Virus record (IMG/VR): IMGVR_UViG_3300024051_000127
Coordinates: 1-24,418 of that record
Direction: 5' to 3' (one strand)
Length of the DNA stretch: 24,418 nucleotides
Source: a virus
Taxonomy: Duplodnaviria; Caudoviricetes
Shown: piece by piece, positions 3,651 through 17,435 of the stretch
How positions within the stretch are numbered: the first letter of the stretch is position 1
Layout of the letters: every line of letters starts with the position of its first letter
Program-made: the position numbers and the translations under genes
The notes under the pieces: model-generated
Told to the model about the DNA's origin: nothing
Seen by the model: the letters and a program-made list of their open reading frames with translations, nothing else
The model's database searches: none

Positions 3651-3761
3651 GTTCAGCCTCAATTGACTTGAAGCCCCTACCTCTACCCTCCACCGAGGAT
3701 ACAGAGAGAAGCACCTGAGAAGCCGGACCTAAGCCCGGCTCTCGTTTTGGGGATGCGGGGA

Positions 3762-3908
3762 TTAGGGGATACTCCGCGCTCGAATGGCGCGCTGGAACTG
3801 CTGCCAACAATCCCATGTCTCCGGGTGATCGGCGCCCAGCGTGTTGAACAGGAACTCATAGCTTGCGGCGAGTTGCTTCAAGATTGCCGTCTGCGTTCCC
3901 ACGTTCAT
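3762..3908 (-). CDS. Small hypothetical protein (48 aa, not in ORF track)
   Basis: AAGGA SD followed by MNVGTQTAILKQLAASYEFLFNTLGADHPETWDCWQQFQRAIRARSIP*. Confidence 0.6.
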   Translation of the reverse strand: MNVGTQTAILKQLAASYEFLFNTLGADHPETWDCWQQFQRAIRARSIP

Positions 3909-3938
3909 GGGCTGGTTCCTTTCTGCTGGGATGGAGGG

Positions 3939-4133
3939 TTAGGCGAGCAAGGCCCAGATGAGCCAGGCGACGAGAGCCGGGATTGCGGCGATGATGAGGA
4001 GGAAGCCGTTCCACACCTCGGGAAAGCTGTAGTCTCCGCCGCCACTGGTGAACTTCGAGACGGCATAGCCATAGGAAAGTACCGTGACGGCGAGCGGCAG
4101 CAGCCACCAGCCGAATGTGATGGTGATGTCCAT
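3939..4133 (-). CDS. Small membrane protein (64 aa, two hydrophobic segments)
   Basis: AGGAG SD. Sequence MDITITFGWWLLPLAVTVL...FLLIIAAIPALVAWLIWALLA. Confidence 0.7.
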   Translation of the reverse strand: MDITITFGWWLLPLAVTVLSYGYAVSKFTSGGGDYSFPEVWNGFLLIIAAIPALVAWLIWALLA

Positions 4134-4267
4134 CGCTCTCTCCTGAAATGAGAACCCCGTCACCAGTGAAGGCGACGGGCTATTATCGGCTGGCGAAACT
4201 ATGAAGCTGGCGGTCAGATTATAGTAACGGCAGGTGTTGGTATAATCTGGCCGTGGGCTATGCCGTA

Positions 4268-4380
4268 TGGGGTCGGGAAGGCCTTTCGGCTTGCAGCGGG
4301 CGAACGCATCTAGCATCAGCGCATCGCGTTCAATCAAGCTGCCGGTGGTCCCGTGCACGTCGGGCCGTGCTGCTTCCCGA
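4268..4380 (-). ncRNA. Putative structured RNA closed by a TCGGGAAG/CTTCCCGA helix, ending CCCCA
   Basis: Inverted repeat 4273-4280/4373-4380, internal GCC-GAAA-GGC tetraloop hairpin, 3' CCA. Confidence 0.4.
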
Positions 4381-4426
4381 TCTCGTTTAGCGAGTTTATC
4401 CCTTTATAGGGTGATCTCGCTATAAA

Positions 4427-4515
4427 TGGTCGGGAAGGTGCGACACTCGCCCTTTTCTGCTGCTTTGCGCGATCACGATAACGCCATCGTGTCCGCCGGC
4501 TAGCAGCCTTCCCGA
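4427..4515 (-). ncRNA. Putative tRNA-like RNA closed by a TCGGGAAGG/CCTTCCCGA helix with 3' CCA
   Basis: 9-bp terminal helix followed directly by CCA. Inner stems GCTGCT/AGCAGC and CACGAT/ATCGTG. Confidence 0.45.
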
Positions 4516-4599
4516 TGGGCTTTGGAATGGGCCGAGCGTTGCGCGCTGGTCTCTGGCTTCTCAGCTTCCGCTTCTATCCAGCGCGCCGCCATTCCAAAC

Positions 4600-4676
4600 T
4601 GGTTGCGGTGGCAGGATTTGAACCTGCGGCCTCCAGCTTATGAGGCTGGCGAGCTACCGGGCTGCTCTACACCGAC
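4600..4676 (-). tRNA. tRNA with CAU anticodon (fMet-like body)
   Basis: GTCGGTG TA GAGC AGCCCGGTA GCTC G CCAGC CTCATAA GCTGG AGGCC GCAGG TTCAAAT CCTGC CACCGCA A CCA gives a full cloverleaf with encoded CCA. Confidence 0.9.
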
Positions 4677-4778
4677 AAGAGACGGGCGCGACTGGTGCGA
4701 ACCAGCTTTCAGCAGCGATTACGCTCTAACTGTGATCCGCGCCCTAATGATGAAGTCGCCCCTAAGCGCAAATCACCA

Positions 4779-4818
4779 CTATAGTTTTCATATAGCGGAT
4801 TCGGGTTCCGAGTGGAAT
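4779..4818 (-). promoter_or_regulatory. Putative late promoter with downstream -10-like repeat
   Basis: ATTCCA-N17-CTATAT (4818-4790) just after the late regulator gene. A second CTATAG lies at 4779-4784. Confidence 0.5.
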
Positions 4819-4824
4819 CCCTAT

Positions 4825-5385
4825 TCAAGCAGTTTTCCTCATTTTTCCATTGTTCTCATAGCCGAAATGCACGGCGAGCGCGGTCAACCCCTGCTTCAGC
4901 ATTTCTACATAGGCACGCTGTAGGTTCTTGCTCTGCGCGAGGTCGGAAACAGCCCTACCCTCGCCGGCAACCTTGACCATGACGTCATATCCGATACCGA
5001 GGACGCGGCGGCAATCAGCAAGGTCGATACCGGCCTGCACCTGATTGTCGGAAAGCGCCGAGCGAGGCCCTCCACCATCGACCGGCTCGCGGCTGTAGTC
5101 GAAAGATCCAGCCCCGGCGCCGCCGAGAGCTTCCCAGATGCGCCGGAATCGCTCCCCGGCCTTCACCTGCGCGTCGTCGATGAGCTTTCGCTGCTCCAGC
5201 ACGACGAGCGCGCTTTCCTTCATGTTCTTGACCGCATAAACCTTCTTCGGGTTCCACGTCTCGCCATCGTGGGCCCGATTGTAAAGCGGGTTGTCGATCT
5301 CGCTGAGTTCGGGCTTGGCTTGGCTGTGACCGACCGCCGCCAGATCGATGCCGCCGAGCCTTGCCTTCCGTCCTCGTCTTGCCAT
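4825..5385 (-). CDS. DUF6456-like late transcription regulator (Q position)
   Basis: Motifs AGERFRRIWE, DYSREPVDGG and LKQGLTALAVHFGY. Last early gene before the late leader. Confidence 0.7.
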   Translation of the reverse strand: MARRGRKARLGGIDLAAVGHSQAKPELSEIDNPLYNRAHDGETWNPKKVYAVKNMKESALVVLEQRKLIDDAQVKAGERFRRIWEALGGAGAGSFDYSREPVDGGGPRSALSDNQVQAGIDLADCRRVLGIGYDVMVKVAGEGRAVSDLAQSKNLQRAYVEMLKQGLTALAVHFGYENNGKMRKTA

Positions 5386-5410
5386 TGTGGTGTTCCTCGT
5401 GTTCCGCCGT

Positions 5411-13052: not shown

Positions 13053-13207
13053 GCGGCGGCTCCCCAGAAATGCAGGAAGACAAACAAGGCGTTGAGGAGG
13101 AATACCGGCACGACGGCGAGCCACGCCCACCAACGAGGAGACAGGAAGAAGGATATCGAGAGCGTTCCGCAGGCGAACGCATTCATGGCTAGATCGATAT
13201 CGCTCAT
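13049..13207 (-). CDS. Small membrane protein (52 aa, not in ORF track)
   Basis: Coupled to the cro stop and to the next start. Sequence MSDIDLAMNAFACGTLSISFFLSPRWWAWLAVVPVFLLNALFVFLHFWGAAA. Confidence 0.7.
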   Translation of the reverse strand: MSDIDLAMNAFACGTLSISFFLSPRWWAWLAVVPVFLLNALFVFLHFWGAAA

Positions 13208-13413
13208 GCTGCATTCTCCGGCTGGCGGGCGGTCATGAAGTCATTTGCCGTGACCTTGCCGTTCGTGGCCTTCGAGATGCGCACGAGGATTTCGGGCTTC
13301 GGAATGCGCCCAGCAACCTTGTATCGCCACAGCGCTTGCCGACTGACGCCGATGCGCTCCGCAAAGTCAGCGTCCGAAGTATTCGTCTTGAGAAGCCAGT
13401 TGGTCAGGGTCAT
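13204..13413 (-). CDS. cro: Cro-like HTH repressor
   Basis: FAERIGVSRQALWRY...RIP...TNGKVTANDF. Divergent from cI. Confidence 0.85.
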   Translation of the reverse strand: MTLTNWLLKTNTSDADFAERIGVSRQALWRYKVAGRIPKPEILVRISKATNGKVTANDFMTARQPENAA

Positions 13414-13419
13414 GCGCCA

Positions 13420-13502
13420 TATATGTCACCATTTTGGTGACGGCGCAAGAGAAATTGTCACCACTTTGGATACTCGCCACATCTCCGGTCTGGTGACATG
13501 AC
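13420..13502. promoter_or_regulatory. OR region: three operators plus divergent PR/PRM
   Basis: Operators GTCACC-N5-GGTGAC 13425-13441, GTCACC-N5-GGATAC 13457-13473 and ATCTCC-N5-GGTGAC 13481-13497. Minus-strand promoter TTGCGC-N17-CATATA. Confidence 0.85.
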
Positions 13503-13508
13503 TCCGGC

Positions 13509-13931
13509 ATGACCAAAGGAAAGTTCCCGAACGGCCTGCGGAAGGCCATGAACGCCAAGAAGATTGGCCTGACCGAGTTGGCTAATCTTGTCGGGACGGC
13601 CAAGCAGAACATCGAGCGATGGGCCAACGGCGAACGTGCGTTGAAGCCAGACATGGCCGCGAAGCTCGCGCCACTCCTCGACGTGTCGGCCAGCCAGCTA
13701 CTTCTGCTGCCAGACGACGGCAGACCGAGCGAACCGAGCAAGGAAGAGAAAATGGAGGCGGACGCACTCGCAACCTTGCGCGCCGCCCTCATAGCCTACG
13801 GTGTCGATAAACGGCAACTGGCTACTCTGCTGCCCGTTATAGATACCTTCGTCACGAAGGCAAAGCAGGCGCAACCAGAACAAACGGGTTCTCGTGATCT
13901 ACCTCAACCCGCCACTCCCCGCCGTGCATGA
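13509..13931 (+). CDS. cI: CI-like XRE repressor without S24 peptidase domain
   Basis: LTELANLVGTAKQNIERWANGER HTH. Only 140 aa. Confidence 0.8.
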   Translation: MTKGKFPNGLRKAMNAKKIGLTELANLVGTAKQNIERWANGERALKPDMAAKLAPLLDVSASQLLLLPDDGRPSEPSKEEKMEADALATLRAALIAYGVDKRQLATLLPVIDTFVTKAKQAQPEQTGSRDLPQPATPRRA

Positions 13932-14833: not shown

Positions 14834-15322
14834 ATGCCTTCTGAAGACTTTTGGGATGCCGCACTGAAGTATTCAGACATCCTAAGCAATTTTGCGGCGA
14901 TAGCTGGTGTCGTCGCCTTGATATTTTTATGGAAGCAAGTTCGCTTGATGGAGAGAACAGATAAAGGCCGAAATACGATTGAAGTAATGAACTTTCTTCA
15001 AAAAGCCGAAATTCGGAGCGCTCGATATCATATACGGACAATTAAAGACAAACCTGTTTCTGAATTCAATAAAGTCGATTTTGAAATGGCATCACTTGTG
15101 GCCTCTTCATTTGATCTTGTCGGAATAATGGCTGAAAAAAAATACATTGAAGAGGAAATAATAATAGACGCATGGGGCCCCGCATTAATATACAACAATA
15201 TTGCCCTAGCAGAATACATCAATGCAAGGAGAATCAAGGAAGGACCGCGCTTCTGGGTCCGCTTTGATAATATCACTAGAAAATCCAAGGAGTTTCATTC
15301 AATTTTCACGCCACACCAATAG
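14834..15322 (+). CDS. DUF4760-like membrane-anchored protein
   Basis: N-terminal TM helix, pattern FDLVGIM...W...YINARR...FWVRFD, AT-rich DNA. Confidence 0.65.
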   Translation: MPSEDFWDAALKYSDILSNFAAIAGVVALIFLWKQVRLMERTDKGRNTIEVMNFLQKAEIRSARYHIRTIKDKPVSEFNKVDFEMASLVASSFDLVGIMAEKKYIEEEIIIDAWGPALIYNNIALAEYINARRIKEGPRFWVRFDNITRKSKEFHSIFTPHQ

Positions 15323-15477: not shown

Positions 15478-15544
15478 ACCGGCCACCTATTTTACTAATA
15501 ATATCAATATATTAAGGAGTTCTTTCATGGCTTTACCGGCCACC
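15478..15544 (+). promoter_or_regulatory. Candidate anti-BstA (aba) element
   Basis: ACCGGCCACC direct repeats at 15478-15487 and 15535-15544 straddle an AT-rich spacer and the bstA start codon. Confidence 0.65.
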
Positions 15545-16432
15545 CCTAAACAGATGAAACTTGATTTGGGAGTAGAAATAGAAAGCGATGTCGGAGGCAT
15601 TGAGATGGGGGTGCTGGAAAACGGCATGGCCTACCTCACACAACGTGGATTGTCCTCAATGTCTGGCGCGGCAAGATCAACCATTCAGGAAATCTCCAAG
15701 GAATGGGAGGACAATTACGGCACAGGAATGGAACCTCCTGGGCGCGTAAGATGGTTTTCGGACTATCTTCGGGAAGCCGGATACGACGCCCCCACGCTAT
15801 ACATGGAAACTGAGCGAAACGGATCGCCGCACTACGCTTATCCTGACCTGGTGTGCATGGCATTCATCGAATACTACGCATTTGAAGCCCAAAGGAAAAA
15901 CGATACAGCCATGGCGAATTATCGCCGGTTAGCCCGTTATGGCCTCAACAAGTTCATTTACGACGCACTGGGGTACAAGCCTACCGATAAATGGGCATAC
16001 TTCACCGATCGCGTAACCATTCTAAACGACGCTACGCCTGAAGGTTGCTTCATCGTCTTCAAGGAAGTCACAGGCATGATCGTGGACCTTATCCGTGCCG
16101 GCCTGCCGATCAGCGATAAGACGATACCCGATATAAGCGTAGGTCAGGTTTGGGCGAACTACTGGCGAGACAAGGGGCTAGAGACACGGTTCGGTGAGCG
16201 ATGCGGGTACGATCATTATTACCCGAGTTATTATCCCCAAGCAAAAAGCAATCCTCAACCCGCTTGGGCCTACCCTGAAGATGCGCTCCCGGAGTTCCGA
16301 CGCTGGTTCAGAACTATCTATCTCCCCACAAAGTACCCAGCCTACATACTAAACAAAGCCAAGGTTCTCGCTGGGGGTAAGGCGCAGGCTCAGCAGATCG
16401 CCGAGTTGTACCAGCCGAAGAAAATCAAGTGA
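15527..16432 (+). CDS. bstA: BstA-family abortive infection protein
   Basis: Motifs GIEMGVLENG..YLTQ.GL, HYAYPD.VCMA..EYYAFEA and SNPQ...AYP..AL.EFRRWF match my recollection of Salmonella BTP1 BstA. Size (~300 aa) and position downstream of cI also fit. Confidence 0.85.
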   Translation: MALPATPKQMKLDLGVEIESDVGGIEMGVLENGMAYLTQRGLSSMSGAARSTIQEISKEWEDNYGTGMEPPGRVRWFSDYLREAGYDAPTLYMETERNGSPHYAYPDLVCMAFIEYYAFEAQRKNDTAMANYRRLARYGLNKFIYDALGYKPTDKWAYFTDRVTILNDATPEGCFIVFKEVTGMIVDLIRAGLPISDKTIPDISVGQVWANYWRDKGLETRFGERCGYDHYYPSYYPQAKSNPQPAWAYPEDALPEFRRWFRTIYLPTKYPAYILNKAKVLAGGKAQAQQIAELYQPKKIK

Positions 16433-16480
16433 CAAAAACAGTCTGACCCCGTCAGTTTTTTTACTTTGCGAACATTCACC

Positions 16481-16506
16481 AGCCCGCCCTTCCGGCGGGC
16501 TTTTTT
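16481..16506 (+). terminator. Intrinsic terminator after bstA
   Basis: AGCCCGCC-CTTCC-GGCGGGCT followed by a T tract. Confidence 0.85.
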
Positions 16507-16575
16507 GTGCGATCCGTACCGAAAAGCCGGAATCAGCCCTTCCCGCTGATGAGGGAAAGCCATAAGCTTGCTTCC

Positions 16576-16660
16576 GAAACCCTCCCATGGAGTTTCACCC
16601 GCGGCAAAATTCCTGACTCCGTCGCGTCATTGCCCCGCCTTCGTGCGGGGCTTTCTTTTT
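16576..16660 (+). ncRNA. Putative sRNA, copy 1
   Basis: Promoter TTCCCG-N17-TAAGCT (16540-16568), 5' hairpin GAAACCCTCCCATGGAGTTTC, terminator GCCCCGC/GCGGGGC plus Ts. Confidence 0.65.
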
Positions 16661-16714
16661 GCGCGTCACGAGACCCCCTTCCCGCGCAGCCGTGAAAGTT
16701 ATAGACTGCCCCTC

Positions 16715-16791
16715 GAAACCCCTCCCCGGAGTTTCATTTGCGGATATCGATCAACCTTCATATTTGCCCCGCCTTTGTGCGGGGCTTTTTT
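16715..16791 (+). ncRNA. Putative sRNA, copy 2
   Basis: Promoter TTCCCG-N17-TAGACT (16679-16707), 5' hairpin GAAACCCCTCCCCGGAGTTTC, near-identical terminator. Confidence 0.65.
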
Positions 16792-17070
16792 GTGCGGCGT
16801 GGACTCAATCCTGAATTGGTGATCTTATCGAGATGCGGCCCCGGCGAGGCCCCGACTGGTAATCGGACAATCCTCGCCGGCACTCCGCATCCTGCCCGGA
16901 CAACCGGACTTGCGGATGCACTTCCGGAACCGATACCAAGCAGGGCCGCCAAAAGGTGTGCGCACACCAGGAGGCGGGCCGGTAGACCAAGAGAACGGCG
17001 GCTTATCCGTTCCTACTTGGCATGAACACGCAACCGTAAGGTTCCGTGGCCACGGACCTGGAGCTATCTC

Positions 17071-17201: not shown

Positions 17202-17303
17202 GAGAGGGCCAACTTGGTAGGCCGCCTCTCTCCTTCTCGATAAAGAACCTACGATCGTTGCCTCGAAGCCCTCGGTTCACGCCGAGGGCTTCTTGCGTTG
17301 GTG

Positions 17304-17332
17304 ATTCTACGCGGGTTTGGTGGAGGGGGCAA
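17304..17332 (-). promoter_or_regulatory. Sigma70 promoter for a convergent antisense RNA
   Basis: TTGCCC-N17-TAGAAT on the minus strand. Predicted start ~17297, followed by hairpin 17265-17292. Confidence 0.65.
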
Positions 17333-17338
17333 TCTTTT

Positions 17339-17391
17339 GTCACCATTTCGGTGACTTTCTGATTGACGCGTCACCAATTCGGTGACATATT
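17339..17391 (+). promoter_or_regulatory. OL operators and PL promoter
   Basis: Perfect GTCACC-N5-GGTGAC at 17339-17355 and 17370-17386. Promoter TTGACG-N17-CATATT. Confidence 0.9.
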
Positions 17392-17435
17392 CTCCTCATC
17401 ACCCCGACACACCGGGAACATGAGGAGCAAGGGAA

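Follow-up and report, generated by a model that had tools for sequence, protein, structure and literature searches.

What does a temperate phage keep in the non-coding leader that separates a putative late regulator gene from its packaging genes? We addressed this question in a virus record of 24,418 nucleotides (IMGVR_UViG_3300024051_000127), the whole of which is referred to hereafter as the window. The nearest relatives of this temperate phage are prophages of Shinella and Ensifer genomes, and repressor-like genes lie near 13200-13900. Terminase and portal genes occupy the minus strand at 1-2551. A DUF6456 gene and this packaging block flank an array of minus-strand RNA elements, and the features of the region, in the direction of reading, are as follows.

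4825..5388, minus strand: upstream gene, DUF6456 / phrog_21451, 187 aa, start codon ATG at 5388
4769..4795, minus strand: candidate promoter end, a -10-like hexamer, its second copy and then a conserved GTGATTTG box, kept in relatives
4684..4744, minus strand: module A, a three-way junction with a 7-bp closing helix and a 5-bp hairpin (4691-4706) with a 6-base loop, not followed by CCA
4600..4676, minus strand: tRNA-Met(CAT), called by ARAGORN and Rfam
4521..4598, minus strand: module B, frame TTTGGAATGG/CCATTCCAAA around an H-type pseudoknot, from covariation in 7 sequences
4427..4515, minus strand: module C, frame TCGGGAAG/CTTCCCGA (4508-4515 with 4430-4437) around a 70-base insert, then CCA
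4388..4422, minus strand: module D, a hairpin with an internal loop
4268..4380, minus strand: module E, frame TCGGGAAG/CTTCCCGA (4373-4380 with 4273-4280) around a 92-base multi-arm insert, then CCCCA
4256..4272, minus strand: 3' flank of the last cassette, kept and common to the arrays of relatives
4212..4252, minus strand: module F, a long hairpin, from its fold
4156..4179, minus strand: module G, a terminator-like hairpin closing the array, kept in relatives
3939..4133, minus strand: first ORF past the array, 64 aa, hydrophobic, without family, from the ORF list

The DUF6456 gene appears to occupy the slot of a late regulator, and a Q-like role for it is only putative. NusG-like antiterminators are annotated in this slot in phiLM21 and RHph_TM3_3_3, and a near-identical tRNA-Met stands behind an annotated NusG-like antiterminator in two cultured rhizobial phages. 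The DUF6456 protein itself matched uncharacterised phage proteins only. Its predicted structure was confident (pLDDT 85), yet neither its sequence nor its fold had a match in the PDB and no solved antiterminator was matched, and a lambda Q-like identity was dropped. From its position the region would be a late leader, with 4769-4795 as a candidate promoter end, at which a sigma-70 scan found no promoter site. Downstream of the 64-aa ORF follow phage metallopeptidase, DUF2280, terminase and portal genes; short non-coding blocks at 3676-3779 and 3911-3945 are kept in relatives, and the genes between them vary. Elsewhere in the window, a homolog of the abortive-infection protein BstA is encoded at 15527-16432 on the plus strand (phrog_6287, E 4e-105), with a DUF4760 gene just upstream (14834-15322), and another non-coding stretch, at 16400-16950 and 17251-17400, also folds strongly (z -5.0 and -5.5) and contains repeated terminator-like hairpins.

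A sequence-only reading had proposed that the leader is a chain of about eight structured RNA elements with no credible ORF. All eight were recovered on the minus strand, from 4156 to 4744, around the tRNA-Met. Four ORFs of at least 50 aa extend into the array; none is credible, because relatives swap in unrelated sequence of different lengths. The 651-base leader folded with a z score of -4.6 (20 shuffles). When the whole minus strand of the record was cut into 162 segments of 150 bases, the lowest z score (-6.1) fell at 4351-4500, the five segments from 4051 to 4800 giving -4.2, -2.6, -6.1, -2.3 and -1.4 against a record mean of -0.46. Scores for individual modules ran from -1.7 to -6.4, values that are inflated because the bounds were picked on the stems. 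Apart from the tRNA, the Rfam 15 families, which include ribozymes and riboswitches, had no match in the window; weak rows (ar14, BjrC80, mir-9256 and others) were far below cut-off and were rejected.

The chain had been thought to contain a tRNA together with tRNA-like elements. ARAGORN and Rfam both placed tRNA-Met(CAT) at 4600-4676, while all other modules went without a score. The tRNA-Met derives from the host initiator tRNA, to which it is 91% identical. It carries acceptor mismatches 1-72 and 2-71 at the top of the stem, common to six other variants, and its 31-39 pair is flipped; anticodon stems vary among arrays. Phage tRNAs have been proposed to evade anticodon nucleases (PMC10264068). 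The altered anticodon stem fits this proposal and is no test of it.

Modules C and E have the closing helix TCGGGAAG/CTTCCCGA in common and unrelated interiors, as the sequence-only reading had it. The CCA that it placed after both follows C directly, whereas E is followed by CCCCA; B is followed by GCCCA and A by GTC. The loops beside the closing helix are of 3 and 4 bases in C and E. Thirteen loci found via the upstream protein have leaders that share little beyond short blocks, which correspond to the closing helices and linkers. Further arrays came from pattern scans, which returned 13 viral stretches and 21 metagenome stretches, plus additional ones; of the 21 metagenome matches to the 3' flank, 8 fell in unrelated sequence by chance and were discarded. 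When both arms were required to be exact, across all loci collected, frame TCGGGAAG/CTTCCCGA enclosed 20 distinct inserts of 44-112 bases, belonging to 16 families by blastn, and frame B enclosed 9 inserts of 44-152 bases belonging to 8 families. In the predicted folds, 7-8 of the 8 pairs of TCGGGAAG/CTTCCCGA were closed in 20/20 inserts. In a further relative, a contig from an RNA library, these frames recur and are separated by 184, 244 and 76 other letters. The helix TCGGGAAG/CTTCCCGA is thus a reusable frame, and inserts move between frames, the same insert being met in different ones.

Two properties of the cassettes call for caution. When the 29 inserts were folded with the frame held fixed (five B-frame rows in the opposite orientation), 3 had a z score of -2 or lower and most folded no better than shuffles. 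The constancy of the 3' flank is partly selection, because most TCGGGAAG/CTTCCCGA cassettes were found through it. Cassettes not anchored by the flank end in CCA in module C of the window and in L014, L075, L084, L092 and L226, and lack CCA in L016, L217 and L218. The frames are copies of each other, and the CCA endings therefore have one origin and are not independent support.

The scans also returned other recurrent sequences. Of 120 loci matching a 16-base frame-B pattern, most were unrelated and 6 were true arrays, 2 of which were already known. In L093, L101, L124, L132, L182 and many other phage loci, 17 bases match the right arm of frame B, which may reflect chance or a related module boundary; the matching bases form the 5' arm of another hairpin directly behind varying genes, and 46 share one context. 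A further recurrent frame, absent from the window, starts with GGGGAAGCCGC, ends in a GGGAGG hairpin and holds variable inserts (L002, L005, L008, L010, L011 and L231). Protein-coding morons stand among the RNA cassettes of the sister arrays L011, L024 and L025, and an ar35 small RNA (RF02346, 105 bits) lies at L041:880-1023, 450 bases upstream of a sister array.

Structural conservation was found: covariation across related phages backs modules B and A and, more weakly, E. Module B is an undescribed helix-closed pseudoknot, in which P1 pairs 4578-4586 with 4541-4549 and P2 pairs 4560-4565 with 4531-4536, and in which the loops are purine-rich and nearly invariant. Among 7 sequences, paired cells make up 97.5% and 12 of the 23 pairs are doubly changed, a covariation score reached by 0/500 shuffles; slid controls pair at 29-47%. 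Double changes affect 4 of the 9 pairs of P1. P2 is the weaker claim, because 1 of its 6 pairs is doubly changed and one further change is single-sided. Six other loci carry module B, whose core is enclosed by four different closing helices, frame C/E of L226 being one of them.

Module A has a 30-base core that is nearly invariant, and 6 of its 20 pairs are changed on both sides among 5 sequences; the inner arm never varies and for this reason has no support from covariation. Homologs were found in Shinella prophages, in Rhizobium phage RHEph10 and in one related record. The RHEph10 copy adjoins a tRNA-Cys and is closed by a different helix, and the core has been seen in three closing helices. 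In module E (4 sequences, the window and 3 homologs), 4 of 16 pairs are doubly changed, a count reached by 16/500 shuffles. A pseudoknot in its first arm, possible in the window and in L033, was rejected as it is not kept in L090 or L232. A decayed copy of E with a broken closing helix lies at L033:1506-1626 (genome G004). No homolog was found for the insert of module C or for module D, homology of F is partial, with only the 3' part recurring (L097), and hairpin G has a weak T tail.

The sister arrays indicate what kinds of RNA such rows can hold. In an Rfam scan of 20 arrays, which also found tRNAs, abiF RNA (RF03085, covariance cut-off 37 bits) exceeded the gathering score in two, with 42.8 bits in L021 and 40.0 bits in L226.

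L021:1543-1578, minus strand: single abiF antitoxin-type RNA, by Rfam
L226:582-617, plus strand: single abiF antitoxin-type RNA, by Rfam

The L226 array holds both this RNA and module B, and in L277 an abiF motif scoring below cut-off lies between the tRNA-Met and frame C/E. The window has no RF03085 match, and the best abiF core match in its leader has 8/19 mismatches. The abiF RNA is an antitoxin that neutralises AbiF in trans (10.1101/2025.04.15.648962), and the AbiF antitoxin RNA, AbiFr, is likewise described as acting in trans (PMC12737573). No Abi_2 gene was present in five array-bearing records, one of them the 96%-complete provirus of L226.

The 19-base abiF core was met in about 260 viral stretches, 120 of them listed (L239-L358); the 120 matches listed represent 100 distinct viral contexts, in which the stems vary and the core is invariant. 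Eight of 14 such viral units tested were above the Rfam cut-off. Among the matches listed, the downstream ORF of at least 90 aa was Abi_2 in 0/65 viral contexts. In the host locus L359, Abi_2 lies 71 bases downstream of an abiF RNA; tblastn of this Abi_2 protein over 123 viral loci found none, 67 of the 124 searched loci being at least 2900 bases long. Abi_2 was found in 15/200 host-family genomes and the RNA, at cut-off, in 1/150 (L359). Stretches upstream of 12 other host Abi_2 genes contained a sub-threshold abiF match in 2/12 cases, and the phage core within 4 mismatches in 0/12. The literature within reach, which took in few subscription papers, held no account of orphan abiF RNA in phages. 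Orphan abiF RNA is a candidate for a widespread anti-AbiF decoy in many unrelated phages, and its link to cassette arrays is new here.

Other sister units resemble Y RNAs and tRNAs. YrlA-like units scored 37-40 bits against a cut-off of 69; these sub-threshold matches are, in L021, a permuted domain of tRNA-like type and, at L217:1030-1089 (plus strand), a stem of 60 bases, and of the two only L217 has an intact GNCGAA motif, which is a Y RNA motif (PMC4201824). Stems of about 60 bases that resemble the Ro60-binding end of a Y RNA and lack a tRNA-like domain occur in L217, L003, L022, L023, L076 and L198. No TROVE (Ro60) gene was found in five array records, all incomplete; TROVE (Ro60-type) proteins gave a weak signal in 2/200 host-family genomes, and YrlA had no match in the window. 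A circularly permuted tRNA-like RNA lies at L021:1702-1851 (minus strand), and others in cassettes of L021 and L214 after a GAAA hairpin linker. In these RNAs the T arm comes first, the acceptor is closed by a tetraloop or a 45-base insert, and the ends of the molecule lie in the anticodon stem. Sister inserts also include degenerate tRNAs and T-arm minihelices.

Some sister inserts thus copy known host RNAs, including the antitoxin RNA of an anti-phage system, and the row is therefore likely to be one of exchangeable RNA decoys against bacterial immunity. We propose that the leader is an exchangeable array of processed RNAs, likely decoys for host RNA-binding defence proteins, a reading to which we give an even chance. 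It builds on the frames, the swapping of inserts, the folds kept in A, B and E, and the abiF, Y-RNA-like and tRNA look-alike units that sister arrays hold alongside. The leader would be transcribed as one RNA with the tRNA, from the phage late promoter to hairpin G. Cuts by host tRNA-processing nucleases at the helix and the (N)CC(C)A tail would free the tRNA and the helix-closed units, and the closing helix would protect the ends of the freed units. Recombination at the repeated frame arms could swap cassettes between phages, as the mosaic suggests. Each insert would show some host protein a conserved loop or fold, and the target of the abiF unit would be an anti-phage RNase. Several observations count against the decoy reading: known RNA families gave no match to the inserts of the window itself, the evidence from abiF belongs to sister arrays and not to the window's own array, the host-genome searches given below yielded no cognate, the abiF RNA reaches cut-off in 1/150 host-family genomes and Ro60-type proteins give a weak signal in 2/200, and most inserts fold no better than shuffles. 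Late expression may also come too late to block some defences.

More tentatively, and with somewhat less than even confidence, we suggest that such arrays could be the RNA counterpart of an anti-defence island in alphaproteobacterial phages. The helix frames would form a processing scaffold for dozens of unrelated, swapped decoys, each for another immune protein; module B or A would be bait for a defence with an RNA partner yet to be found, and orphan abiF RNA would be among the most widespread phage counter-defence RNAs.

Searches of host genomes bear on possible cognates. Module B was found by pattern in 0/401 host-order genomes and by model in 0/30 host-genus genomes, and its comparison with plasmids and cultured phages gave nothing useful. 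In 150 class genomes, module A was found only in the known prophage and in one chance coding match. Among about 400 family genomes searched by blastn (E <=0.01), 20 matched 4200-4599 and 7 matched module A. The real matches were L033, L041, L060 and L062, plus copies of the 3' flank in L045 and L061; eleven weak matches, inspected and rejected, were in long open frames or lacked the module helices. Plasmid matches in Caballeronia and Cupriavidus were due to chance. A search of sequencing runs returned 24, none with half of the query words and all as contigs; eight assembled contig runs were inspected, and contigs carry no ends, strand or level. In one sample a contig stops 79 letters upstream of the tRNA in 2/4 libraries; the stop is not evidence of a start site, because the contigs of the other two libraries run on.

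The decoy reading has to be weighed against five others. The modules might specifically be tRNA mimics that titrate tRNA-cutting or tRNA-modifying enzymes, which is close to the original idea of processed tRNA mimics. Module A, described from the letters as an acceptor-like stem with a T-arm-like hairpin, does have the 7-bp closing helix and the 5-bp hairpin and retains a 7+5 coaxial stack; its loop, however, has 6 bases instead of the 7 of a T loop, and varies in homologs. A 7-bp acceptor-like stem followed by N-CCA, here A-CCA, is present in module C alone. The degenerate tRNAs, T-arm minihelices and permuted tRNAs of sister arrays favour the same view. Modules A to F, however, contain no T-loop or D-loop consensus and gave no tRNA or YrlA model score even at E 10; B is a pseudoknot, and abiF units are not tRNA-like. 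We therefore regard a purely tRNA-directed role as unlikely. The related suggestion of decoys for tRNA-targeting defences keeps its first half, a decoy-type role being the most likely one; it must reach beyond tRNA-targeting defences, because tRNA-shaped sister inserts stand beside abiF and Y-RNA-like units.

Alternatively, a terminated leader might yield the RNAs in the lysogen, and they would serve as regulators or as defence, acting on the host or against superinfecting phages. Lambdoid prophages make leader-derived small RNAs. The conserved terminator-like hairpin at the end of the array, the protein morons in the same slot in relatives and the BstA homolog carried by this phage are all consistent with this explanation. 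An orphan antitoxin RNA, on the other hand, would relieve a defence rather than impose it, module A is also present in the 115-kb phage RHEph10, and the inserts show conservation of structure and probably no obvious pairing seed. A lysogenic function is in our judgement quite unlikely.

The sequence-only reading had also raised antitermination or packaging as functions. In the first case the structures would influence late transcription in cis, by antitermination or by loading an antiterminator, and the position of the array between a putative late regulator and packaging genes, together with NusG-like genes upstream of related leaders, would agree with this. Both functions are a poor fit, because among close relatives that share the upstream gene the inserts differ or the array is missing: L004, L006 and L009, whose upstream protein is 72-94% identical, have wholly different inserts or none of the array. 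The same insert also stands behind different upstream genes, and a role in cis is improbable. It is still less probable that the modules are for the most part neutral remains of tRNAs and other RNAs, which recombination shuffles and palindrome repair keeps symmetric. Most inserts are indeed not unusually stable, C, D and F are without covarying homologs, and a decayed copy exists in L033; against this stand the compensatory changes and nearly invariant loops of A and B across distant phages, and an abiF core that is invariant inside varying stems. That the RNAs are components of the virion or the packaging motor, as a site upstream of terminase and portal genes might suggest, is very improbable, because the modules turn over much too quickly for a part of the motor and the array is missing from close relatives.

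If the decoy reading is true, the arrays amount to an inventory of RNA-based counter-defence, in which the conserved inserts can serve as baits for new RNA-binding defence proteins. The presence in such arrays of a known antitoxin RNA without its toxin makes the idea testable with a characterised toxin. The frames may also serve as a natural scaffold for expressing small structured RNAs.

The literature, of which few subscription papers were within reach, held no description of such cassette arrays, and several known systems offer partial parallels. GOLLD and ROOL also adjoin tRNAs in prophages (PMC5737381); unlike the present arrays, they are single large RNAs. Polycistrons of irregular tRNAs and allo-tRNAs are odd tRNA-like clusters, some near toxin-antitoxin genes (PMC5389517), and they are full cloverleaves with anticodons, which modules A to F are not. 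Sister arrays share permuted tRNA-like domains and 60-base stems with bacterial Y RNAs of the YrlA type (RF02553; PMC4201824). They differ from YrlA in that the sister units are below cut-off and the five incomplete records have no Ro60 gene, and the window has no such unit. In contrast to the abiF RNA or AbiFr locus, the abiF units of sister arrays are single copy with no adjoining abiF gene, and are absent from the window.

A closer functional parallel is pseudo-ToxI of phage PhiTE, a non-coding RNA by which the phage imitates a type III antitoxin of its host (PMC3475682). The orphan abiF units of sister arrays would likewise work as antitoxin mimics; PhiTE, however, expands tandem repeats of one mimic, whereas the arrays here line up single unrelated RNAs. 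Module B is a pseudoknot of a size suitable for a type III antitoxin mimic, but it is present in single copy, and its host cognate was found in 0/401 and 0/30 genomes. The closest parallel in position is T4, whose RNAC and RNAD are transcripts of the tRNA region with roles given as unknown (PMC3014915); the function of stable non-tRNA RNAs of this type has been open for decades. A phage-wide blastn, the sole sequence comparison with them, did not return T4 or T5 RNAs. As in T4, non-tRNA structured RNAs occupy a phage tRNA region, the modules flanking tRNA-Met here and tRNAs in relatives. Unlike those of T4, they are cassettes, with at least 16 and 8 insert families in two fixed frames, carried by temperate Rhizobiaceae phages.
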